DNA of 64,000 bases from contig JACQRC010000089.1 of assembly GCA_016206665.1 (NCBI GenBank), positions 8,393 through 72,392 on the forward strand, read 5' to 3'. The stretch is from Candidatus Omnitrophota bacterium. GTDB lineage: Bacteria > Omnitrophota > Gorgyraeia > Aquiviventales > JACQRC01. Under the pieces are notes generated by a model, which saw nothing but the letters and a program-made list of their open reading frames with translations, was not told where the DNA came from and did no database searches. Positions 1,950 through 13,564 of this stretch are shown piece after piece. How positions within the stretch are numbered: the first letter of the stretch is position 1; the number at the start of each line of letters is the position of its first letter. A program made the position numbers and the translations under genes.

Positions 1950-2105
1950 AGCAGACCACGGAGACACGGAAGCACGTGTCCGTGGTTCCGTGCACCTGGC
2001 CGTGGCGCGGCACTTCCGTGGTTCCGTGATTACCAAAGTACCTGGTACGCTTATTACCAAACACATCGCTAAATATGCTATAGTGTTTGGTAAACCAAAC
2101 ATCGC
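1950..2105 (+). promoter_or_regulatory. palindrome- and repeat-rich regulatory region upstream of the NTase gene pair
   Basis: CACGGA / TTCCGTG arms surround a central CACGTG at ~1957-1992. ccgtggttccgtg occurs twice (1978-1990 and 2015-2027) and ttaccaaa occurs twice. A perfect palindrome tgtttggtAAaccaaaca lies at 2084-2101, and a tatagt -10-like box at ~2071. Confidence 0.4.
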
Positions 2106-2107
2106 CT

Positions 2108-2416
2108 ATGGCCCACGTGATCAGAGCCGTCCTCCAAGAAGAATTAGCCAATTCCCGGCGGATGCAGCGCCGGTACGAACAGGCCCTGCGCAGGCTCGGC
2201 AAGGGCAGCCTGGTCAGGAAGCGCATCAGCGGCCATCCGTACTACTACCTGGCGCTGCGGGAAGGCAGGCGGGTGCGGTTCCAGTATCTGGGCAAGCTGT
2301 CGGCACAGGAACGTCAAGCGCGGCTGGCGCAGCATCGGCAGCGCGGGCAGTATCGGCGCCTCCTCCGGGAGGTCAAGCAGCAAATTCGCTTCCTGGAGCG
2401 GTCCCTGCGTGGCTAG
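2108..2416 (+). CDS. hypothetical basic protein, probable DNA-binding partner (antitoxin-like) of the downstream nucleotidyltransferase
   Basis: ORF with ATG at 2108 (the ORF track extends to a TTG at 2087). Arg-rich; its 3' end overlaps the downstream NTase start by 8 nt. Confidence 0.45.
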   Translation: MAHVIRAVLQEELANSRRMQRRYEQALRRLGKGSLVRKRISGHPYYYLALREGRRVRFQYLGKLSAQERQARLAQHRQRGQYRRLLREVKQQIRFLERSLRG

Positions 2417-3092
2417 CCAGCGCACGTTGTGCCAAGCGGTGCTCACGCGCCTGGCAAAGGCCGGTGTGCTGGAGGAGGTCGTGCTCATCGGGAGCTGGTG
2501 TCTGGAAGGCTACAAGAGCTACTTCGGCCGGCAGACACCGCTGACGGCGTTGCGGACGCGCGATATCGACTTTCTGGTGCCGCGACCAATGCGTATGCGA
2601 ACAGCGGTGGACGTGCCTGCCCTCCTGGACGATCTGGGCTTTATCCTGGACTTCCACCGGGGCGGGTACATCCGCCTCGTCCATCCGGAGCTAATTGTGG
2701 AGTTCCTCGTCCCAGAGCGGGGGCGGGGGACGGATCAGCCGGTGCGCTTACCCCAACTGAGCATCAACGCGCAATCCCTGCGCTTCTTGAATATGTTGGC
2801 GGAGCAGACGATCATGGCCACGCTGGAAGGGACCACGGTGCGCATGCCCCACCCGGCCGCCTTTGCGCTGCAGAAACTGCTCATCGCGCCGAGGCGTCAA
2901 GGCCATACGGGCAAGCAGGCCAAGGACGTGGAGGCAGCCATCGCGGTCCTGGAAGCCCTGCGCGCTCATGGAGAAACGGCCTCAGTGAGCCGGTGCTTTA
3001 CAGCACTGCCACGACGCTGGCAAACACACATTCGCCAGGCGCTCGGCGCGCGTCGCGAGCTGCGCGATTGGCTGGCGCTGCTGTCCAGTTAA
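2409..3092 (+). CDS. Pol-beta-superfamily nucleotidyltransferase, AbiEii/DUF1814-like (putative type IV TA toxin)
   Basis: GS-X10-DxD minimal NTase motif (LIGSWCLEGYKSYFGRQTPLTALRTRDIDFLV) near the N-terminus. ~227 aa; GTG start overlaps the upstream gene. Confidence 0.55.
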   Translation: MASQRTLCQAVLTRLAKAGVLEEVVLIGSWCLEGYKSYFGRQTPLTALRTRDIDFLVPRPMRMRTAVDVPALLDDLGFILDFHRGGYIRLVHPELIVEFLVPERGRGTDQPVRLPQLSINAQSLRFLNMLAEQTIMATLEGTTVRMPHPAAFALQKLLIAPRRQGHTGKQAKDVEAAIAVLEALRAHGETASVSRCFTALPRRWQTHIRQALGARRELRDWLALLSS

Positions 3093-3443: not shown

Positions 3444-5144
3444 ATGAGCGGATACGGCAGCTTGTCGAAAGAGCAGTTGATCGACAAAATCAAACGCTTA
3501 CAAAAACGTAAGAAATTTGGATTGGTTTGGGAGGACAAACTCGAAGATGTGGCAGAGCTTTGTAAGACAAAATTACCCGTGCTGGTCGATGAAAAAGGAG
3601 AGGAAATTTCGGATAGCGTGGCCGAGACAGCAAATGTGTTGATCGAAGGCGATAATTATCATGCACTCTCGGTTCTGAATTATACGCACAAGGGGAAAAT
3701 CGATTTCATTTATATAGACCCTCCTTACAACACTGGTGCAAAAGACTGGAAATATAACAACGCCTTTGTGGATGCTCAAGACCCCTACAGACATTCCAAG
3801 TGGCTATCCTTCATGGAGAAACGCCTCAAATTGGCAAAAAATCTTCTAAGGGATCAGGGAATTATATGTGTAACGATTGACGATTATGAAATGCCTCGTT
3901 TGTGGTCGCTTATGGATGAAATATATAACGAAAGTAATCATCTCGGAACCGTGGTTATAAGAAACAATCCGAAAGGAAGGAAAACGAAAAGGAAGGTATC
4001 GCTAATTCACGAATACGCCTTGTTTTACGGGCGAAGCGGTAATGCCAAGATTCAGAAATTAGAGGTCGCACCAGAGGACAAAACGCATAACTATGTGAAG
4101 GATAAGGACGACTCATGGTATCTGCCCGGCAACCTGAGAAAACAGGGAGTTGATAGTTTGGCCGTATCGCCTAAGACTGGGAGGTTGTCGGATAGATACT
4201 ACCCCATATATTACGATCCCAAGACGGGCAAGGTGAGTACCACCAAGAGTAAGCAATCAATAAAGATTTTGCCCATAGATAAGGACGGACAAAAAAGAAT
4301 ATGGCGTAGAGCCAAGCAAGTCATCGATGAGATGTTTGAGAGGGGTGATGTGTGGTATCAGAAAACCAAGTACGGCAATCAAATATTTTATAAATTTAGA
4401 GGCGGATTAGATGGCGAACCGCCAGAAAGCATTTGGTATGAGTCGAAATTTTCAGCAAGCGAACACGGGACACAAATACTCGACACAATTTTGGGAGTGC
4501 GAGAAACATTTCAGTATCCGAAATCCCCATACGCTGTTATGGAATGTATAAAAGTTGCTACCGCAAGCAGGGACGCGATCATACTGGATTTCTTCGCCGG
4601 TTCCGGCACTACCGGCCACGCAGCCTTAGAGTTAAATAGTGAAGATAATGGAAATCGCCAGTTCATTCTTTGCACAAATAATGAGAATGGCATTTGCAGG
4701 AACGTATGCTATCCCCGCATCAGGAAAGTCATGGCTGGATATACAGACTCAAAAAAGAAAAAAATAAATGGTTTAGGTGGAAATCTCAAATATTTTAAAA
4801 CGGATTTTGTTGAAGCCGAGCCAACTGATAAGAACAAAAAGAAATTAACGGTACAAGCGACTGAAATGCTTTGCTTGAAGGAGGGGGCGTTTAGAACAGT
4901 TGTTAACAAAAAATCTTTCAAAATTTTCAAGAATGCGAACCATTACGTGGGAATCATTTTTGACCACACAGCCATCCCCGATTTCAAGCAAGCGATCGAA
5001 AAGCTACAAGGCAAATTTAGCGTATACGTGTTCTCTCTTGGTGATGATGCTTTTGATGAGGAATTCGAGGATGTAAAACAAAAAGTGAAACTCTCGCCTA
5101 TTCCTGACGCGATCTTGAGAGTCTATCGAAGAATCTTCAAATGA
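3444..5144 (+). CDS. mod: Type III restriction-modification system, DNA methyltransferase (Mod) subunit, N6-adenine, beta class
   Basis: DPPY motif IV (IYIDPPYNTG) precedes the AdoMet motif I (LDFFAGSGTTGHAA), i.e. the beta-class order typical of Type III Mod. Low-GC codon usage; stop overlaps the res start (ATGA). Confidence 0.85.
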   Translation: MSGYGSLSKEQLIDKIKRLQKRKKFGLVWEDKLEDVAELCKTKLPVLVDEKGEEISDSVAETANVLIEGDNYHALSVLNYTHKGKIDFIYIDPPYNTGAKDWKYNNAFVDAQDPYRHSKWLSFMEKRLKLAKNLLRDQGIICVTIDDYEMPRLWSLMDEIYNESNHLGTVVIRNNPKGRKTKRKVSLIHEYALFYGRSGNAKIQKLEVAPEDKTHNYVKDKDDSWYLPGNLRKQGVDSLAVSPKTGRLSDRYYPIYYDPKTGKVSTTKSKQSIKILPIDKDGQKRIWRRAKQVIDEMFERGDVWYQKTKYGNQIFYKFRGGLDGEPPESIWYESKFSASEHGTQILDTILGVRETFQYPKSPYAVMECIKVATASRDAIILDFFAGSGTTGHAALELNSEDNGNRQFILCTNNENGICRNVCYPRIRKVMAGYTDSKKKKINGLGGNLKYFKTDFVEAEPTDKNKKKLTVQATEMLCLKEGAFRTVVNKKSFKIFKNANHYVGIIFDHTAIPDFKQAIEKLQGKFSVYVFSLGDDAFDEEFEDVKQKVKLSPIPDAILRVYRRIFK

Positions 5145-7360
5145 TGCTTCTGAAAGATTACCAGAACAACGCCATTAAGGAATTGCTCGGAAAAGCCAAA
5201 AAGCTTATTACCTACGGCGACGCGAAACGCATGGTTTTTAAAGCCCCCACCGCATCAGGTAAGACAATCATGATGGCCGAGTTCTTAAAGCAGTTATGCG
5301 AAGACAGGGAAGTTCTCGCTTCGTTTTCGCTTATCTGGACGGCCCCAAGGCAACTGCACATCCAGAGCAAGGACAAGCTGGAACAGTATTACGAGACAAG
5401 CCGCGCCCTTAGGTGTTCCCTCTTTGAGGAATTGGATGACAAACGGATTGACGAAGGCGAAATCCTCTTTTTCAACTGGGAGAGCATCAACAAGAACGAC
5501 AACATTTACATCCGCGAAAACGAGCAGGACAACAATCTGTCAAATGTTATAAGCCGGACGAAGGAGGAAGGCCGGATAATCGTTCTCGTCATTGACGAGA
5601 GCCATCACCATGCTACGAGCGAAATATCGCAAAACTTAATCCGCGACATTGACCCGAAGCTGACCATTGAAGTATCAGCTACCCCTGCGATGGAAAGCCC
5701 GGATGAGATTGTCTCCGTTCAGCTTGAGGATGTTAAGGCGGAGGCAATGATCAAGAAAGCTGTTATATTAAATCCGGACTTTGAAAATGTTCTCAGGGAC
5801 AGAAAAATTCAGAGTCAGTTAAGCAAGCAGTCCGAGGAGTTAGTTATTGAAACTGCTCTTAAGAAGCGAGATGCCCTTAAAGAAGCCTACAAGAAAGAGA
5901 GAGTAGGCGTCAATCCGCTCATTCTTATCCAGCTGCCGGACAGGAAAACGTCGCTTGAAGATGTGATTAAGGACAAAGTTATCGCAGTCCTCAAGAACAA
6001 GCACAAGATCACAGCTGAAAGTGGAAAGCTGGCAATCCATCTGGCGGAGCATAAAGAGAATCTTGACGACATTTCTGATCCCTACAACGAAGTAGAAGTT
6101 TTGATATTTAAACAAGCCCTTGCCTTGGGCTGGGATTGCCCCAGGGCTCATATCTTGGTTCTTTTCCGAGACTGGCAGAGCTTTGAGTTTTCGATCCAGA
6201 CAATAGGACGGATCATGCGTATGCCAGAACCTGATCATGGTCATTACGACACTGAAATCTTGAATTACGGATATGTATTTACCAACATCGAAAGTATAGA
6301 AATCCAAGAAGACTTGGCCAGAGATTACATCACGATTCACGCTTCGAAGCGTGGACGTGAATATTCACCTCTGTCGCTGCTTTCTTGCCACTCCAAGCGG
6401 TATCGCGAGAAAACTCGTTTGGCACCAATTTTTATCAAAGTTTTTCTGCAGGAAACTGCTGCCTACAGTCTGAGCCAGAGAATAAGGAAAAAAGCGAAGG
6501 GATTAAGCGCAAGATTTATTTCTGATTATAAGGCCGAGAATGTTGATGCATTAGCTGGCGCAAGCATAATCGGCGACAGGGCCATTAGAGTAACTGGCTG
6601 GGATTTACAAAAGTATTTTGATTACTTCATACGAAAGAGCCTCGCGCCGTTCTACGCCGAAGACAGGTCTATAGGCAGACTAAAAGAGGCCATTTACGAA
6701 TTTTTTGAGCAGGTCATGGGGATGCGCTATGAGGTTGTTCAAGAAGAGATTGTTCAAACGGTTTTAAGCGAAGGAAACCTCGTGCATTTTATTAATGTGA
6801 TCGACCAAGCTAAGGACAAATACATTGACTACATTTCAAGGCGGGAAAAAGAGCTTGAATTTGACCAGGGATGGGAAGTGCCAGAAACCATTGGTTTCAA
6901 CGCTCGCTACGCTATCGAAGATCGAAAAAAGTCCATCATGCACCCCTTTTTTAAGAGTGAGTATTCGGGTGTCGAAGCCGCATTTATGACTTTTTTAGAT
7001 GAACAGGACAAGGTAGTCTGGTGGTTCAAGAACGAAGCCAAGAATCCGGCTTATTTTGCTGTTCTCTACGAGGAAGATGGCGACAAAAGACCATTTTACG
7101 TTGATTTTATTGTCCAATTGAAAGATGGATTGATTGGGCTTTTCGATACGAAGGCCGGTCTGACCCAAAAAGTAGCTGGCCCGAAAGTCAATGGGCTTCG
7201 GACATATGTTGGGGAACAGAACAAAAAGGGCAAGAGGCTATTTGGCGGGATCGTTACCAATACCGATGGTCGGAATTACGCCGGGCGATGGGTTTACTTC
7301 AATAGGGAAGGAAAGGAATTATCCGGCAGCCTGGATAATTGGGAGACTTTGGCTTTTTAG
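5141..7360 (+). CDS. res: Type III restriction enzyme Res subunit (SF2 DEAD/DEAH helicase-nuclease)
   Basis: Walker A APTASGKT, DEAH-like box VIDESHHH and helicase motif layout. Translationally coupled to mod; low GC. Confidence 0.75.
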   Translation: MMLLKDYQNNAIKELLGKAKKLITYGDAKRMVFKAPTASGKTIMMAEFLKQLCEDREVLASFSLIWTAPRQLHIQSKDKLEQYYETSRALRCSLFEELDDKRIDEGEILFFNWESINKNDNIYIRENEQDNNLSNVISRTKEEGRIIVLVIDESHHHATSEISQNLIRDIDPKLTIEVSATPAMESPDEIVSVQLEDVKAEAMIKKAVILNPDFENVLRDRKIQSQLSKQSEELVIETALKKRDALKEAYKKERVGVNPLILIQLPDRKTSLEDVIKDKVIAVLKNKHKITAESGKLAIHLAEHKENLDDISDPYNEVEVLIFKQALALGWDCPRAHILVLFRDWQSFEFSIQTIGRIMRMPEPDHGHYDTEILNYGYVFTNIESIEIQEDLARDYITIHASKRGREYSPLSLLSCHSKRYREKTRLAPIFIKVFLQETAAYSLSQRIRKKAKGLSARFISDYKAENVDALAGASIIGDRAIRVTGWDLQKYFDYFIRKSLAPFYAEDRSIGRLKEAIYEFFEQVMGMRYEVVQEEIVQTVLSEGNLVHFINVIDQAKDKYIDYISRREKELEFDQGWEVPETIGFNARYAIEDRKKSIMHPFFKSEYSGVEAAFMTFLDEQDKVVWWFKNEAKNPAYFAVLYEEDGDKRPFYVDFIVQLKDGLIGLFDTKAGLTQKVAGPKVNGLRTYVGEQNKKGKRLFGGIVTNTDGRNYAGRWVYFNREGKELSGSLDNWETLAF

Positions 7361-7462
7361 CGAGCAAAGAGAGGGCCCAAAAGCACCGAGTACTTCGATG
7401 CCCTGCTGAACTATGTATCATGCCCACACACTTGGTATTGTGTTTACCGAATTAAAATTGGC

Positions 7463-8620
7463 ATGACCCAATTTTCGGGTACTCTACTGGCAAGCGGCGT
7501 TGTAGCCGCAGCGACGACGGCCACCCTACAGTTCCGCAGCGTTAGATGGGAACGACGGAAAGAATTTCTCGAGCACCAGCTGCGGTTGTATGGTCCCGCC
7601 TACGCCCTAATAGCACAGAATCGCGATGCTTTTGAACGAATCAAGAGCATTCATGTGCAGGGTGAGAAGCGCTTGAGTGGTGTAATCGGGGCAGAGAAAG
7701 ACATTGATGCAACGATAGCGGTGGCAAACGAACACATCAGACGAATCGTCTTGAGTAATAATGAAATCCTTGAGGACATGCTTAAGAAGAATCTACACTT
7801 CATCGATCCGGATGACATCCAGCTTGTAACGCAATTTTTCCATGATATGGCCAATTTAAAGGTGGAGACCTCAGCAGACGTGGGAACAAAGTTACCACTT
7901 CTAATGGCGCTGGATCTTCCCAATATATCATTTATGCGGCCCGGCCTTATTGAGTGCTTTGAGCAAAGATTTAGGCAGAAACAGGTTCAGTTTCGAGAAA
8001 TGCTAGGGAGCAGCAAGAGGCATCAACGGGATTTGCCAACGAACAAAAGACCGCTTTGCGCTGTTGGTTTACCTCCACGCATCTGGCGGACGTTTGCTAT
8101 ACCTGTCTTGACCGGCTTGATGGTGGCGCTCTTCTGGCATTTCTTTGAAGTGGTAAAACCGTGGAAGATAACATTATTCTTACCCTATGCGTATGAATAT
8201 GCCTATAGAGGAGCCACCAACACTACAGGCAATCAAAGCAGAGAAATCCTGCCCGTCGTCCCCATCCGCGTGCGTCTTACTGACAAAGCGAGTGGGTTTG
8301 TGTTTGCCGTTCACAATGATAACATTCGGAGTCTCCACGGAGTCTCGTTACATCTGCAACTACCGCCGGGTGTTGAGGTGACTGATCCAGGACCATTCAG
8401 AGCGTTTTGGCCAAACGAGGAATACTTTTTCTCTTTTGGGGACGCGGTGTTGAATCACGGAGTTTTCTATGCGACTGAGGTGCGTAATACTGCAGGCGAA
8501 CTGAAGGGTTCGATTCAACTAAAATTCAGCCAGCCAAGAGAGTACGAGATAATAGCCACTGTGAGCGGAGAAGACATGCTTCCGGCAGAGAAGAAAATCA
8601 AAATTGTCGTAGTACCCTAG
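7463..8620 (+). CDS. hypothetical membrane-associated protein (385 aa) of unknown function in the defence island
   Basis: Long low-GC ORF. N-terminal hydrophobic segment and an internal TM (AIPVLTGLMVALFWHFF); no recognisable catalytic motifs. Confidence 0.45.
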   Translation: MTQFSGTLLASGVVAAATTATLQFRSVRWERRKEFLEHQLRLYGPAYALIAQNRDAFERIKSIHVQGEKRLSGVIGAEKDIDATIAVANEHIRRIVLSNNEILEDMLKKNLHFIDPDDIQLVTQFFHDMANLKVETSADVGTKLPLLMALDLPNISFMRPGLIECFEQRFRQKQVQFREMLGSSKRHQRDLPTNKRPLCAVGLPPRIWRTFAIPVLTGLMVALFWHFFEVVKPWKITLFLPYAYEYAYRGATNTTGNQSREILPVVPIRVRLTDKASGFVFAVHNDNIRSLHGVSLHLQLPPGVEVTDPGPFRAFWPNEEYFFSFGDAVLNHGVFYATEVRNTAGELKGSIQLKFSQPREYEIIATVSGEDMLPAEKKIKIVVVP

Positions 8621-8666
8621 ACGCTTTACGCTATCCATAATGCCCGAAGCGGTTATTGACAGAATT

Positions 8667-8712
8667 GGCCAGGTTGAACCTCAGCGGAACGTGGCCCGAG
8701 TGAATTAAGTAT
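8667..8712 (+). repeat. 46-bp repeat, copy 1 (hairpin-forming), left of the 8733-9200 gene
   Basis: ggccaggttgaacctcagcggaacgtggcccgagtgaattaagtat matches 9190-9235 at 43 of 46 positions. It contains an imperfect stem ggccaggtt / aacgtggcc. Confidence 0.7.
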
Positions 8713-8732
8713 CTGTCCATGGAGTTGCAGTC

Positions 8733-9200
8733 ATGGATGCAAAGATTGTTGTGAAAATTTTAGGTCTTACCATAACTTCGGCTGGCGTCGTTCTGAGCCT
8801 GCTCAATCTGAAGGGTTTTCTCAAGTACCCAGAGCGCCTAAATTTTGCGCATTTGGCGCTCGAAACGAGCGAAGGCATTCCGCTTTCGCATCCTGGAGCT
8901 AAGTCCTTTATGAGTCGCTTCCCGCCACCTCCAACAGACAGCAAGGGTACGTTCACTCACTTCGTAAAAAATGCAATACAATTTACTGGTGGCGGGACCC
9001 CATTGTCAGGCACTGTTAAATACATGTATCCTGATGGAAGGCGGACTGCTGCGGTCGCAACATTTGAAGACGTAAAGCGCTGGGCCGCAGAATCACGTTA
9101 TCCGTGGCTTGCCTGGTGGCTGACAGTCGTAGGACTTCTCATCACTAGTGCAGGTGTCTTTTGGGACTGGCGGACAGCAGATCCCACCGGGCCAGGTTGA
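8733..9200 (+). CDS. hypothetical two-TM membrane protein (155 aa)
   Basis: Hydrophobic helices at the N-terminus (KILGLTITSAGVVLSLL) and C-terminus (WLAWWLTVVGLLITSAGVFW). Low GC; its stop codon lies inside repeat copy 2. Confidence 0.4.
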   Translation: MDAKIVVKILGLTITSAGVVLSLLNLKGFLKYPERLNFAHLALETSEGIPLSHPGAKSFMSRFPPPPTDSKGTFTHFVKNAIQFTGGGTPLSGTVKYMYPDGRRTAAVATFEDVKRWAAESRYPWLAWWLTVVGLLITSAGVFWDWRTADPTGPG

Positions 9201-9235
9201 ACCTCCGCGGAACGTGGCCCGATTGAATTAAATAT
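9190..9235 (+). repeat. 46-bp repeat, copy 2, right of the 8733-9200 gene
   Basis: ggccaggttgaacctccgcggaacgtggcccgattgaattaaatat is a direct repeat of 8667-8712. Confidence 0.7.
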
Positions 9236-9276
9236 TGCGGCCCTCAAATCGTTTATTACTTTGGGTAATATTTTGC

Positions 9277-9305
9277 TTGACAAACATCCGGCCGGTTCGT
9301 ATAGT
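9277..9305 (+). promoter_or_regulatory. consensus sigma70 promoter TTGACA-N17-TATAGT driving the non-coding region upstream of the RT module
   Basis: Perfect -35 at 9277-9282, exact 17-nt spacer, TATAGT -10 at 9300-9305. The nearest ORF start is ~450 nt downstream. Confidence 0.6.
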
Positions 9306-9311
9306 GCTTCT

Positions 9312-9758
9312 GGTGGATCCGATGGGACCATCGGACGTTCGATCTTTGATAGCTGCTACCTCCTTTTACTTTTAGCGAGGCGCGGTACCAAGAGTCGCTG
9401 AGAAGCGGCTGACCAGCCTGCCCCATGAAGACACCGTCATCCAGGACAGCCAATAGTGCGGTTGTCAAGGAAGGCGGGGTCTGTACGAAGGAGCTGGCGC
9501 TGGGTTAGTGTTCGGGCATGTGGTAAGCCAGAGAATTAAGGTGACCTGAGGCCAGACCCACGTAGCAGAACACTGGAAGACCCGGAACCTGTTCCAGTTG
9601 GGCAAGCCTACCCGTGCGGGTAGGAAATGACGTAGGCAGGGGTTCCAGGATGTTTTGGAAGAAGACGGGATCGCTTCCCCTTCCCCGCGGTGCGCGCCGA
9701 GCTTATGCAGGGGTTCCGGGTGCGCAACCCGGCTAGCTGCAGAGGAGGTGATGAAACA
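9312..9758 (+). ncRNA. candidate structured non-coding RNA (retron msr-msd-like or other RT-associated ncRNA); boundaries approximate
   Basis: It lies between the strong promoter and the first plausible RBS/ATG (GGAGGTG..ATG at 9759), with no convincing ORF. Multiple perfect hairpins are present: ccgatgg-ga-ccatcgg (9320-9335), cctacccg-tgc-gggtagg (~9607-9625), ccgggt-gcgca-acccgg (~9714-9730) and actggaa..ttccagt (~9572-9598). ggggttccRgg is a direct repeat. Confidence 0.35.
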
Positions 9759-10004
9759 ATGAGTAAGTGGCAGCTTATTTCAAAGGTCCTGGAGTTGATC
9801 TCGAAGTTAGAAGAGATCATCACCAGCGAGGGGAAGCGAAATTCTGAAGCGTCTGAGCTTCAGGAGTGCAGGGGCGACCTCAGGACTCTGCTAAAAAAAC
9901 TGCGGAGCCCCGGCGAGTCGGTCAACCCGAACGAAGTTCTACTGCTGTCATATAAAGCCGTAGAACACATAGCCTCCTGGCTCGAAGGAAAAGAAGAGAA
10001 GTAG
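9759..10004 (+). CDS. small hypothetical helical protein (81 aa)
   Basis: AGGAGGTGA RBS 6-7 nt upstream of ATG 9759. Predicted charged/coiled-coil protein. May instead be part of the ncRNA. Confidence 0.35.
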   Translation: MSKWQLISKVLELISKLEEIITSEGKRNSEASELQECRGDLRTLLKKLRSPGESVNPNEVLLLSYKAVEHIASWLEGKEEK

Positions 10005-10116
10005 AAACGATCAGACGCGGAAGACCCGTCTTTACTTCCAACAATAAAGTTTCTCCTGCCATTTTTCCTTCCTTACAATACACCAAGAACCTAAAAAGCG
10101 AACAAGGACGAACATC

Positions 10117-10410
10117 ATGAACGTCGGTGAAGCAATAAAAACGCTGCGGGTGAGGCGGCAGATAACTCAAAAGTTCCTGGCAGAACGATGCGGGATTACG
10201 CAAGGCTTCCTATCCCTTGTTGAAAGAGGAGACAGGGAGCCAGGGTTTGACTTAGTTGAGAAGATATCAGAAACGCTAGGCGTCCCACCACAGCTTATAC
10301 TCCTGCTTGCTTGTGAGAAATACACGCGGGGCAAACGCTACTCAAAACCTTTAAGGAAGATTGCTTTGACTCTAGACGAGCTACTTCACGCCTATTCCGC
10401 CGCTTGCTAA
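10117..10410 (+). CDS. XRE-family HTH DNA-binding protein, translationally coupled to the reverse transcriptase
   Basis: HTH_XRE signature (ITQKFLAERCGITQGFLSLVERGDREP). Stop TAA overlaps the RT start codon (TAATG). Confidence 0.7.
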   Translation: MNVGEAIKTLRVRRQITQKFLAERCGITQGFLSLVERGDREPGFDLVEKISETLGVPPQLILLLACEKYTRGKRYSKPLRKIALTLDELLHAYSAAC

Positions 10411-11333
10411 TGCATCCTCATCGAGCAGGGTCCACCATTTTATCGCCTGAAGAATTCGGGCGAGTTTTGGGCTACGAGCCAGCCTTCCTCCAGGACATGG
10501 TTAAGAATATCGAAAAAAACTACAGCCCCTATTTGGATAGAACAGGAAAGAAGCCACGCTGGATTGCCAGACCATCTGAAACTCTTAAGGGCGTCCAGCG
10601 TAAGATTCTCGATAACTTCCTGGAACTGGTCTCGTTGCCGAATTACGTCATTGGTGGAGTAAAGGGAAGGAAACACGCAGAACATCCAAAGTTACACGTA
10701 GGCCACCCTATCGTTGTGACGCTTGACGTCAAAGATTGCTACCCCAATATCACTTATAAGCAAGTTCTCGAGGTGTTCCGCGAGATCGGATTCTCCAAAG
10801 AAGTTGCGGTTTTGGCTACACGGCTGACAACGTACAGACGTCGGCTACCGTTGGGTGCTCCTAGTAGTACTCAGCTTGCCAATTTAATACTGAAACCAGC
10901 GGTGACGCGTGTCTGCGCCCTCGCAGAACAGGCAGGATTGGATGTTGCGAGTCAGTATATAGATGATCTGGCTTTCTCGGGAGATCAACTGCCTAACGAT
11001 TTCATCACTCTGGCGATCCGAGAATTCTCAAGACACATGATTAAGATTAACCGCAAGAAAATTCAAGTTATGCGTAGAGGCCATACACAACTTGTGACAA
11101 GAAGGCTGGTGAATGCTCGGGTCGCTCTGCCCACAAAGGAAAGACACAGAGTTAGGGCTGCACTTCACCAGCTCGGTAAGCTTGAAGCAAGTGATTCCTC
11201 ATATAGCAAGCAGTTCCTCAGTGTGCGTGGACGGATTCTCTCTTTAAGGAAATTACATCCACATCTTGGGCAACGTCTGATGGCGCAGCTCAACAGTCTG
11301 CAGAAGTCCACAACCAAGAAAACATCGCACTAA
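10410..11333 (+). CDS. retron-type reverse transcriptase (~307 aa, Ec86-like)
   Basis: RT motifs are present: 1-2 IVVTLDVKDCYPNI, 4 LPLGAPSSTQLANLIL, 5 YIDDLAFSG (YxDD). A retron-like C-terminal region is present (KKIQVM..QLVTRRLVN, corresponding to the VTG motif). The block order and many residues parallel the E. coli Ec86 retron RT. There is no maturase/X or endonuclease domain. Confidence 0.8.
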   Translation: MHPHRAGSTILSPEEFGRVLGYEPAFLQDMVKNIEKNYSPYLDRTGKKPRWIARPSETLKGVQRKILDNFLELVSLPNYVIGGVKGRKHAEHPKLHVGHPIVVTLDVKDCYPNITYKQVLEVFREIGFSKEVAVLATRLTTYRRRLPLGAPSSTQLANLILKPAVTRVCALAEQAGLDVASQYIDDLAFSGDQLPNDFITLAIREFSRHMIKINRKKIQVMRRGHTQLVTRRLVNARVALPTKERHRVRAALHQLGKLEASDSSYSKQFLSVRGRILSLRKLHPHLGQRLMAQLNSLQKSTTKKTSH

Positions 11334-11554
11334 TCTGCACTAGTGCCTTCCCGCGCGATAATAGGCCAAAAGAAACCGTACGGTGCTCCAGGGGGGCTGA
11401 CTATCCGTGAAAGCGCAGCGTTGCCAATGACCGCCAAAGTTATAGCCCAGAGAAAATTCGGATCGGCGCTATCATCTTGAATTCGAGGAATGCATCACCT
11501 AACTACAGGCCGAAATAATTTCCGTGTCCCTGAATTTTAAAGGGGGAAGTTTCA

Positions 11555-12202
11555 ATGGTAAAACTTTTCCTCGATATAGAAACCCTGCCCGCTGAAGAGT
11601 CCTTCAAAGCTGAAATTCAGAAGGGGATTCTTGCGCCGCGGGGTCCTAAAAAGAAGGCGGCAAAGGTCGCCGCGGCGCCAGCGACACCTAAGGAACTGGA
11701 AGAGCAATTGCGACAAACGGCCCTCAGCGGGGACTTTGGGCGAATTCTCTGTATTGGATACTGTAAAGAACCTCCTGCGGGGAGTTCTGCTGAGATACTG
11801 CAGGGTGGCGAGCGCGAGATATTGGAAAAGTTTTGGGTGATTGCGAGAGATGTCGATCTTTTTATTGGGCACAACGTTATGGAGTTCGATTTAAGGTTCA
11901 TCTACAAAAGGTCGATCATTCACAAAGTGAGGCCGACGAAAAACGATTTGAGCTTCGCACGATATCGCAGCCAACCAATCTACGACATCATGCGAGAGTG
12001 GGAAAAGTGGGACGTACAGACGTACACCTCTCTTGACAGAATGGCCAAAGTTTTGGGATTGGAGACTTCAAAGAAGGGACTGTCTGGAGACAAGGTTTAC
12101 GACGCTTTCCTGGCTGGGAAACTTAATGAGATCTACGAATATTGCAAGGCGGATGTTGAGCTGACGAGGCAGATTTATAAGCGAATGAATTTCGAGATCT
12201 AG
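11555..12202 (+). CDS. predicted 3'-5' exonuclease related to the exonuclease domain of family-B DNA polymerases (DEDD/RNase H-like fold)
   Basis: N-terminal LFLDIETLP (Exo I DxE). A C-terminal YCKADVELT (Exo III YxxxD) is present. Length ~215 aa, typical of stand-alone PolB-like exonucleases; low GC like the RT. Confidence 0.65.
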   Translation: MVKLFLDIETLPAEESFKAEIQKGILAPRGPKKKAAKVAAAPATPKELEEQLRQTALSGDFGRILCIGYCKEPPAGSSAEILQGGEREILEKFWVIARDVDLFIGHNVMEFDLRFIYKRSIIHKVRPTKNDLSFARYRSQPIYDIMREWEKWDVQTYTSLDRMAKVLGLETSKKGLSGDKVYDAFLAGKLNEIYEYCKADVELTRQIYKRMNFEI

Positions 12203-12382
12203 TAAAGGTACCAGCTTCCTCCGTGCCAGGTTAACCGAAGCATAGCTGATGAGCACAAAACTAATTGACCCAGACAAAATCCAGATCGGCGACGTGGTGT
12301 TGGTGGCCACGCGGAATCGGATTACGGAGTGGGTGCAACGGAAGCTGGGGTTTGGGGATCGGAGGGCCGTTGAGGACGACAC

Positions 12383-12417
12383 TTGACATGCATAAAAACT
12401 CATGCTATCTTATGCAT
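12383..12417 (+). promoter_or_regulatory. sigma70-like promoter (TTGACA-N17-TATCTT) overlapped by the inverted repeat ATGCATAA-N14-TTATGCAT (operator) for vapBC
   Basis: -35 at 12383-12388, -10 at 12406-12411. Palindromic arms lie at 12388-12395 and 12410-12417. Confidence 0.5.
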
Positions 12418-12430
12418 TGGAGGTGACCCC

Positions 12431-12631
12431 ATGCGGACGACCCTGGACATCAACGCGCGGTTGCTGCGGGACGCCATGCGGCGCGCCCGCCTCAAGACGA
12501 AGACCGAGACGGTGGAGCGCGGGCTGGAGGAGCTCATCAATACCGAGCGGCGCCGGCGGCTGATCCGAGCCCGGGGCGCGGGTTACGGATTGACCTTCGA
12601 GGACTTCCTGCGTTCCCGCCGGGATGAGTAG
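12431..12631 (+). CDS. vapB: type II antitoxin, VapB-like
   Basis: Small Arg-rich protein immediately upstream of, and overlapping by 8 nt, a PIN-domain gene. ATG at 12431 follows the GGAGGTGA RBS. Confidence 0.7.
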   Translation: MRTTLDINARLLRDAMRRARLKTKTETVERGLEELINTERRRRLIRARGAGYGLTFEDFLRSRRDE

Positions 12632-13028
12632 ACAGCTCGTCCTCGCGGACACCTCGGTCTGGGTGGCGCACCTGACCGGGCGTCACACAGCGGTGACGAA
12701 CGCCCTGCAAGAGCTCCTGTCCGCACACCGCGTGGCCGTCAATGCCGTGATTCGGCTCGAGCTGTTGACCGGCGCCCGGGACGAGGCCCAGTACGCCGAA
12801 CTCGATGACGCCCTGGGCGGCTTGCACGCGGTGGAGCTGACGGAGGCCGTCTGGCGCCAGGCCGAGCGGCTGCGGTTCGACTTGCGACGGCGCGGGCGGT
12901 TGATTCCCGCCCTGGATGTGCTCATCGCCTCCTGCGCGATGGCGTATGATTGCGCCGTGCTGCATGCCGACCGCCACTTCGACTTCATCGCGCGCAGCGC
13001 TCCACTGACGATTCATCAGCCCGCCTAA
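12624..13028 (+). CDS. vapC: type II toxin VapC (PIN-domain ribonuclease)
   Basis: PIN-domain acidic residues (LADTSVW.., ..LELLTGA.., ..PALDVLIAS..) and size ~134 aa. Confidence 0.8.
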   Translation: MSRQLVLADTSVWVAHLTGRHTAVTNALQELLSAHRVAVNAVIRLELLTGARDEAQYAELDDALGGLHAVELTEAVWRQAERLRFDLRRRGRLIPALDVLIASCAMAYDCAVLHADRHFDFIARSAPLTIHQPA

Positions 13029-13306
13029 GTGCTTGCCGTGGAAGCCGTACCAGGTTCCAGGGGGACAGGTTATCAGTCAAAGTACCAGGGCACTTGGTGC
13101 CAGGGTGAGGAGACCGGCGCATGGGAAAATCCTTGCCTTCAGCTTTGGCCGGCCTATAATATCATTACCCTTCCGTACGAAGCGATCTTATCGTGGAGAT
13201 GTTACCCGCGGCAGGGGCGAGACCTGGAGGGTGTGGCAGGCAGGTCGCCGGCGGGTAGCTACATCGTCCACGATCCTACCAGGCCCACTTTCATGTTATA
13301 CTTAGC

Positions 13307-13564
13307 GTGAGTGAACCGTACGACCCTACGGCCTTTCAGGAGATCATCTGTACCGGCCACGCCCGTGAACGCATGGAGAAGCGCGGCGTCAGCCGGGACG
13401 ATGTGGAGACGACACTGCAGCGTCCCGATGTCATCTTGCCGGTCATGCCGGATGGGACGAGAGAATTGCGCCGGCGTATCGGGCGGCGAGTGCATTATGT
13501 CGTCATCGCCCTGAAGCGCCAGCAGGCTATCTTGATTACCACGGGGTGGAGCCGAGAACCATGA
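13307..13564 (+). CDS. DUF4258-family protein (putative toxin of a TA pair)
   Basis: CTGHARERMEKRGVSRDDVE motif characteristic of DUF4258. Overlaps the downstream partner gene. Confidence 0.5.
   Translation: MSEPYDPTAFQEIICTGHARERMEKRGVSRDDVETTLQRPDVILPVMPDGTRELRRRIGRRVHYVVIALKRQQAILITTGWSREP

Follow-up and report, generated by a model that had tools for sequence, protein, structure and literature searches.

A predicted stand-alone PolB-like DEDDy exonuclease at the end of a defense island, adjacent to a complete Type VI retron, in Candidatus Omnitrophota

A gene for a small predicted exonuclease lies directly after the reverse transcriptase (RT) gene of a retron in the window, the stretch of 64,000 nucleotides of Candidatus Omnitrophota DNA analyzed here, and its position raises the question of whether the nuclease belongs to the retron, contributes to defense in some other way, or is simply its neighbor. 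The exonuclease coding sequence occupies 11555..12202 on the (+) strand, the same strand as the RT gene, whose end at 11333 leaves a spacer of 221 nt (11334-11554) between the two, which agrees with the placement directly after the RT given in a preliminary description of the locus. That description went on to suggest nucleic acid processing coupled to reverse transcription, or a nuclease effector function, for the encoded protein.

The coding sequence starts with ATG and comprises 215 codons and a stop codon, and a Shine-Dalgarno-like AGGGGGA can be read from the sequence at 11541..11547 (+), 7 nt 5' of the ATG. The translated protein matches, over its full length, the Pfam families PF10108 DNA_pol_B_exo2 (E=3.4e-16, 60 bits, cut-off 24) and PF13482 RNase_H_2 (1.1e-10, 42.2 bits, cut-off 22), with weaker Pfam matches to PolB and PolA exonuclease domains, and it matches two PHROG families, PHROG 25228 and, at 1.4e-22, PHROG 403 ("DNA polymerase exonuclease subunit"). 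A search of 5.8 billion proteins returned 1177 homologues at E<=1e-3, and the best 120 of the 1177 are full length and 48-73% identical to the window protein, with the exception of one 100% identical protein, the source of which is named as a Candidatus Omnitrophica MAG. Hundreds of cellular proteins of the PF10108 family share 50-60% identity with it; the family corresponds to COG3298, [quoted passage not shown], and our literature search on PF10108/COG3298 found nothing beyond a superfamily classification (PMC3985635). Judged by its sequence, the window protein is an additional member of this known, uncharacterized family, with which it shares the DEDDy motifs, a size of about 200 amino acids and a stand-alone architecture.

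All three exonuclease motifs are intact in the window protein. Exo I (DxE) is represented by LFLDIETLP at 11564..11590 (+), residues 4-12, which contains the catalytic D7 and E9; Exo II (Nx3FD) is represented by FIGHNVMEFDLRF at 11861..11899 (+), with N107 and the catalytic D112; and Exo III (Yx3D) is represented by YCKADVELT at 12140..12166 (+), residues 196-204, in which Y196-x3-D200 constitutes the DEDDy signature. The first and third of these are the motifs quoted in the preliminary description, and both are present in the open reading frame 11555-12202 (+). Across 27 aligned homologues the catalytic residues D7, E9, N107, D112, Y196, and D200 are unchanged, and the invariant positions comprise D7, I8, E9, and T10 in Exo I, F103, G105, N107, F111, D112, and F115 in Exo II, and Y196, C197, D200, and V201 in Exo III; the invariance of the six catalytic residues therefore points to an intact DEDDy enzyme.

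The AlphaFold2 model of the protein is confident (pLDDT 88.7, pTM 0.87) and has a single part predicted to be disordered, a variable Lys/Ala/Pro-rich loop at residues ~25-45 located between Exo I and the core. When this model was compared with the PDB using Foldseek, the best fold matches were the exonuclease domains of Pol epsilon, archaeal PolB, HSV Pol and E. coli Pol II, and the top 47 PDB matches were all family-B polymerases (query TM-score ~0.6, probability 1.0), with Cas1:Cas2-DEDDh (8fyc) appearing as a weak structural match. A PDB sequence search found no solved structure of a close relative and gave a marginal match (E ~0.8), in which the Exo II stretch aligns to the exonuclease domain of E. 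coli Pol II. The window exonuclease has its RNase H-like fold and its Exo I, II, and III motifs in common with the proofreading domains of the family-B polymerases (E. coli Pol II, archaeal PolB, Pol epsilon, HSV Pol), but it is just 13-20% identical to them and has no polymerase, palm or thumb domain, and it would be in essence the proofreading domain of a family-B polymerase minus the polymerase. By reference to the DEDD superfamily, catalysis would be carried out by D7, E9, D112, and D200 together with Y196, with Tyr196 positioning the nucleophile, and the enzyme would remove nucleotides from free DNA 3' ends through two-metal-ion hydrolysis. The substrate, the polarity and the cellular role are ones that we infer. 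The identification of the protein as a stand-alone PolB-exo-like exonuclease of the DEDD group, more exactly DEDDy, with predicted 3'-5' activity was well founded, in that Pfam, the invariant catalytic residues and the modeled fold all agree.

The exonuclease gene is the last gene of a low-GC block of foreign composition at 3444..12431 (+), which is apparent in the composition profile and the GC3 table and in which all genes lie on the + strand. The block begins with a Type III restriction-modification (RM) system, recognized by Pfam and PADLOC and consisting of Mod at 3444-5144 (+) and Res at 5141-7360 (+), followed by two ORFs of unknown function at 7463-8620 and 8733-9200 (+), the retron, and finally the exonuclease. 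Its GC content is 42-52%, with GC3 of 0.47-0.65 in the genes and ~0.41-0.43 in two non-coding stretches; the host genes that flank the block have 62-69% GC and GC3 of 0.67-0.87, and the exonuclease gene itself has 48.5% GC and GC3 of 0.57. The VapBC pair that lies 3' of the exonuclease has the GC content of the host and its own promoter-like site. No tRNA gene was found within the window and no direct repeats were found flanking the low-GC block, so that the edges of the island are unmarked. The description of the gene as the distal end of a defense island is supported by this arrangement, in which it closes a low-GC block that contains the Type III RM system and the retron, and it is best read as a horizontally acquired terminal gene of the island, which would have arrived by horizontal transfer in that last position.

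The neighbor that precedes the exonuclease is a complete Type VI retron at 9277..11333 (+), which is outside the exonuclease unit and was delineated by PADLOC, alignment of the SP protein, a conserved RNA and a promoter scan. It comprises a near-consensus promoter-like site at 9277-9305 (scan score 11/12), a structured non-coding RNA (ncRNA) at ~9312-9758, the 81-amino-acid SP at 9759-10004, which can be aligned to its counterparts in 5 related loci, the HTH protein at 10117-10410 (PADLOC HTH_VI, 2e-19) and the RT at 10404-11333 (PADLOC RT_VI, 8e-57), all on the + strand. The non-coding region 5' of SP, of approximately 450 nt, is kept in five related loci, and its consensus fold contains 28 pairs with compensatory changes. 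There is a hairpin in the ncRNA at ~9316-9338, and in a long-range helix CCTCCTTTT (~9359-9368) pairs with the Shine-Dalgarno region of SP (~9741-9748), a pairing that resembles the hyRNA repression of SP translation published for Type VI retrons (10.1101/2025.10.22.683967). The published Type VI operon is ncRNA-SP-HTH-RT, which ends at the RT and has no exonuclease component (10.1101/2025.10.22.683967; 10.64898/2026.04.27.721009). The retron in the window carries every part of this architecture, as known from Retron-Vpa2, Retron-Sen3 and Retron-Eco12, whereas an exonuclease 3' of the RT is absent both from the published architecture and from the related loci.

The spacer between the RT and the exonuclease (11334..11554, +), for which an independent promoter had been suggested, contains no recognizable element. 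A sigma-70 consensus scan found no promoter-like site on the + strand of the spacer, and a consensus scan likewise found no intrinsic terminator on that strand, although either consensus may not suit this host. The possibility that the spacer is itself the retron ncRNA was considered and ruled out, because there is no Rfam match anywhere across 8500-13500 even at E<=10, because the fold of the spacer RNA is weaker than that of shuffled sequence (z=+2.6), and because the covarying ncRNA sits 5' of SP. A tblastn search with all of the genes found 3' of related RTs, and with the neighbors of the closest exonuclease homologue (locus L001), detected no gene remnant in the spacer, and blastn of the spacer matched the same genome alone, with no similarity to other loci.

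The exonuclease is read in the direction of the retron and no terminator was detected in the spacer that separates them, so that read-through co-transcription, and with it a functional tie, is possible. In such an arrangement the exonuclease would trim or turn over the single-stranded DNA of the Type VI retron and the SP toxin would be kept untranslated, and inhibition of the nuclease by a phage would allow msDNA to accumulate and defense to be triggered. This is in keeping with published Type VI retrons, in which msDNA is kept low by host nucleases and the triggers are inhibition of RecBCD or phage recombination proteins (10.1101/2025.10.22.683967; 10.64898/2026.04.27.721009), and given that dependence on host nuclease activity, the presence of a nuclease nearby is biologically suggestive. 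Against it is the spacing of the genes, in that the HTH and RT genes overlap and the retron genes are close-packed, whereas the exonuclease is separated from the RT by the 221-nt gap.

The link between RT and exonuclease was examined in both directions, beginning here with the retron. RT homologues at 41-55% identity were located on seven contigs, and SP-HTH-RT is conserved in 6 of the 7 loci, these being all of the loci whose contig extends 5' of the RT. The gene 3' of the RT varies among the seven loci: it is a 140-amino-acid protein of unknown function in L033, a 199-amino-acid protein followed by a DUF2779 protein in L034, a 406-amino-acid PDDEXK_1 nuclease whose gene overlaps the RT stop codon in L036 and L039, a 58-amino-acid remnant of that same PDDEXK_1 nuclease gene in L038, and a SNF2/PLD helicase in L040. 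The overlapping nuclease genes lend the coupled arrangement some support, but they are confined to one RT sub-lineage, with RTs 63-70% identical, on contigs that carry phage-like genes (terminase, ParB-methylase, integrase). An HMM of the exonuclease gave no match in any of the seven related retron loci even at E<=10. By eye, the motifs LDFET, YNxxFE and YCDLD can be picked out in the DUF2779 proteins that lie near related RTs; homology between these proteins and the exonuclease was considered, but hhalign assigns it a probability of 0.6% and it is not claimed.

In the other direction, the window RT, HTH and SP, together with an RT profile, served as queries against about 110 loci with exonuclease homologues (~30 cellular and ~80 viral), and none contained a retron RT, HTH or SP apart from the same genome (L005). 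One locus, L019, has a lone RVT_1 gene 5.8 kb from its exonuclease, and because of that distance and the weakness of its match to the retron-RT profile (1e-8) it is taken as unrelated. With the exonuclease missing from all seven retron loci and the retron RT from the exonuclease loci, the adjacency of the two genes is unique to the window among the loci sampled. These comparisons place the exonuclease outside the Type VI retron that it adjoins: the unit ncRNA-SP-HTH-RT is complete at 9277-11333 without it, a 221-nt gap intervenes, and there is no co-occurrence in either direction. The proposed coupling to reverse transcription is not upheld by these data, and we consider a nuclease dedicated to the retron improbable, the more so because the closest relatives of the exonuclease adjoin systems that are not RTs.

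The settings in which the wider family occurs are cellular and viral. Many of the cellular homologues at 43-60% identity are from sources that bear the names Patescibacteria, Berkelbacteria or Parcubacteria, and contigs of 0.4-1 Mb are among those that carry the cellular homologues. At 19 non-redundant cellular loci the neighbors within two genes are diverse, with no recurrent partner, and include DnaE, UvrD, YceG, a methyladenine glycosylase, glycosyltransferases and transporters; among 55 such neighbors, PADLOC recognized just two, a UvrD-type helicase and a protein that fits Type I restriction-enzyme models. The gene order SHMT-PNP-Ada-Cda-BCCP-BC-SIS-CTP_transf-exonuclease is conserved between two homologues at 57% identity, and one cellular homologue adjoins ExoVII, DinB, and dCTP deaminase. 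The co-occurrence search advocated in the preliminary description returned no enrichment near RTs, and across the family as a whole the gene is found mostly beside unrelated genes or phage modules.

The viral relatives (257 from IMG/VR, 165 from phage records of GenBank) are all 30-39% identical to the window protein, and they lie beside SSB and annealing proteins of the Sak4-like or Erf-like kind, as in the example of a Yersinia prophage with the order CIII-Erf-SSB-exonuclease. Judged by such neighbors, the phage members appear to serve recombination modules as their exonuclease. The window gene could by extension be a remnant of a phage module, either the exonuclease partner of an Erf or Sak4 annealing protein or the exonuclease subunit of a phage polymerase, and in favor of this are its matches to PHROG 403 and PHROG 25228 and the number of viral relatives beside annealing proteins and SSB. 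The exonucleases of the phage Erf/Sak4-SSB modules, which belong to these same two PHROG families, are homologous to the window protein over their full length and have its size and motifs, but they are flanked by SSB and annealing proteins; near the window exonuclease there are no genes for annealing proteins, for SSB, for a polymerase or an integrase, or for anything else of phage type, its neighbors being the retron RT and VapBC. The phage proteins are also more distant in sequence than the cellular relatives (50-73%), and the tree described below puts the window protein within the cellular clade. A phage origin of this kind is very improbable, and in the case of the retron, no relatives of its RT were found in viral contigs.

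In a neighbor-joining tree the window exonuclease groups with two homologues, P0002 (73% identity) and P0003 (60%), inside the cellular clade, while P0004 and P0072, from housekeeping settings, group further out. The P0002 gene (in L001, with 48% GC) is preceded by PDC-M50A and then a PDC-M50B/ThsB-like TIR gene and is followed by a C5 DNA methylase; the TIR protein is 56% identical to Bacillus ThsB, and a TAATG joins the TIR gene to the exonuclease gene, the stop codon of the former overlapping the start codon of the latter by 1 nt. In L121 (with 35% GC), 210 nt separate the P0003 gene from the preceding sequence for the C-terminal part of an MvaI/BcnI restriction endonuclease (Pfam 1.1e-12). 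In all three of these nearest-clade loci, therefore, the exonuclease is the next same-strand gene after a defense gene, a different one each time (retron RT, ThsB-like TIR, MvaI/BcnI), and an RM component is in or beside every one of them: Type III RM in the window, the C5 methylase in L001 and MvaI/BcnI in L121. The loci differ in host GC content, and the window has no sequence in common with the other two outside the coding sequence. Most PF10108 members lie among housekeeping genes, whereas the window copy and its two nearest relatives adjoin defense genes, and the gene neighborhoods suggest that a PolB-like exonuclease of housekeeping type was recruited on at least three occasions to sites directly after different defense genes. 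The idea of a defense context for the exonuclease is in part rescued by these three closest members, the window protein included, while no enrichment is seen in the remaining cellular loci. As the adjacency comprises three loci, of which two lie on very short contigs, and is arranged by a simple neighbor-joining tree, it is treated here as a lead and not as a result.

This lead invites the idea of a helper indifferent to the system that it accompanies, a portable 3'-5' exonuclease placed after unrelated defense systems (the Type VI retron, the Thoeris-like TIR, Type II and Type III RM). Such a helper might degrade DNA ends made or exposed in the course of defense, as a RecBCD-like clean-up activity where hosts may lack RecBCD. 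The regular position after a defense gene on the same strand in 3 of 3 nearest-clade members and the RM component at each locus are consistent with this, and the TAATG overlap with the TIR gene in L001 argues for operon membership over passive cargo. A more distant homologue on an Acidobacteria contig lies directly after an M78-UvrD-PD-(D/E)XK helicase-nuclease. On the other side, the sample is three loci, the remaining family shows no defense enrichment, and no family in PADLOC-DB v2 matched either the window exonuclease or its relative P0002; moreover, the partner systems have no chemistry in common, and a non-specific exonuclease has no obvious means of discriminating self from non-self. 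We regard both the portable helper and its clean-up function as doubtful. A bolder version, which we think unlikely, would have the window gene, P0002 and P0003 supply RecBCD-type DNA-end degradation as a system-agnostic helper that, beside the retron, acts as a guarded nuclease keeping ssDNA low, such that its inhibition by phage arms the SP toxin.

DEDD exonucleases are already tied to immunity in the form of CBASS Cap18 and of Cas2-DEDDh and the DnaQ-like prespacer trimmers. The window exonuclease has the superfamily, the 3'-5' chemistry (here predicted) and the location in a defense locus in common with them, but those enzymes are DEDDh proteins with defined partners, whereas the window protein is DEDDy, matches no PADLOC model and has relatives without a constant partner.

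Taken with the evidence above, the account that we think somewhat more probable than otherwise is that the window gene encodes a self-contained DNA 3'-end exonuclease, acquired horizontally and carried as cargo of the island, with no tie to the RT. A small sub-clade would have left the usual chromosomal housekeeping setting of the family, with its members now directly 3' of defense genes, and since these defense genes are unrelated to one another, the most likely role would be a general trimming or degradation of DNA 3' ends as island cargo. The exonuclease may in this capacity help to clear DNA ends made by the neighboring systems, and not the products of the RT specifically.

The main outcome of this analysis is a corrected record: annotation of the exonuclease as an accessory of the retron is unwarranted, and its neighbor is an ordinary Type VI retron with all of its parts. 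What is new is the defense adjacency of the nearest exonuclease clade, which is a small and testable lead. Recent reports have Type VI retrons sensing the state of a host nuclease, RecBCD (10.1101/2025.10.22.683967; 10.64898/2026.04.27.721009), and if the guarded-nuclease reading were true, this would be a retron that carries its own guarded nuclease. If a wider survey confirmed enrichment of the clade in defense islands, it would point to helper nucleases carried for hosts that lack RecBCD, and it would provide the first functional handle on PF10108/COG3298, a family that is widespread in Patescibacteria.

The segment immediately preceding the exonuclease, window 9277-11333, is a complete canonical Type VI retron, in which a promoter-like TTGACA-17-TATAGT element (9277-9305) is followed by a conserved structured ncRNA (approximately 9312-9758), SP (9759-10004), the HTH protein (10117-10410), and the RT (10404-11333). 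The Shine-Dalgarno region of SP (~9741-9748) is base-paired by the 5' segment CCTCCTTTT (~9359-9368), with compensatory changes in relatives, and this pairing resembles the published repression of SP translation by the Type VI retron hyRNA. The 3' part of the ncRNA/SP leader also contains a 17-nt direct repeat with a GCAGGGGTTCC core (9633-9649 and 9704-9720), and this motif is kept in L033, a contig encoding a related RT.

Two ORFs, window 7463-8620 (385 aa) and 8733-9200 (155 aa), separate the Type III RM system from the retron. Neither has a match in Pfam, PADLOC, NCBIfam, or PHROGs, and both by eye contain hydrophobic, membrane-like segments; they could represent an undescribed defence gene pair. 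The shorter ORF is flanked by a 46-nt direct repeat with 93% identity between copies (8667-8712 and 9190-9235), the second copy lying immediately upstream of the retron promoter. At the other end of the island, the low-GC tail downstream of the exonuclease (12203-12431), which probably contains the right edge, includes a 45-codon ORF that is called in the identical contig L005 from the same genome (L005 1070-1207), together with a strong promoter-like site (TTGACA-17-TATCTT with TG, 12383-12411) upstream of a VapB/VapC pair (12432-13028). Immediately to the left of the island, in DNA of host GC content (2087-3092), a PF12281 NTP_transf_8 nucleotidyltransferase gene (2409-3092) begins within a small ORF (2087-2416), and the two may form a toxin-antitoxin-like pair.

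Within a single sub-lineage of the related Type VI retrons, there is a 4-nt overlap between the RT stop codon and a gene encoding a 406-aa PDDEXK_1/Cas4-like nuclease (L036 1971-3191 and L039 3915-5135); L038 retains only a 58-aa remnant of this gene (1136-1312). The gene may encode a nuclease accessory to the retron, or may simply be an adjoining phage gene; phage-like genes also occur on these contigs, namely those for a ParB-methylase in L036 and L039, a terminase in L039, and an integrase in L038. DUF2779 proteins are encoded one to three genes downstream of related RTs in L034 (5204-6691) and L038 (2810-4294). Their N-terminal half is Cas4-like, and DEDD-like motifs (LDFET, YNATFE, and YCDLD) were spotted by eye in the C-terminal half; hhalign gave no significant match between these proteins and the exonuclease profile.

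In the Acidobacteria contig L010, an exonuclease homologue with 43% identity (7315-8409), whose ORF may include an N-terminal extension, is immediately 3' of the gene for a 1126-aa protein (3933-7313) in which an M78/IrrE peptidase is joined to a UvrD helicase and a PD-(D/E)XK nuclease. In phages, relatives of the exonuclease (viral contigs L041-L120; 30-39% identity), frequently labelled "DNA polymerase exonuclease subunit" in phage records, look like recombination-module exonucleases, because they are adjoined by SSB and Erf-like or Sak4-like annealing proteins; a Yersinia prophage (L124 4782-6693) has the gene order CIII-Erf-SSB-exonuclease. It is phage recombination modules that reportedly trigger Type VI retrons (10.1101/2025.10.22.683967; 10.64898/2026.04.27.721009).
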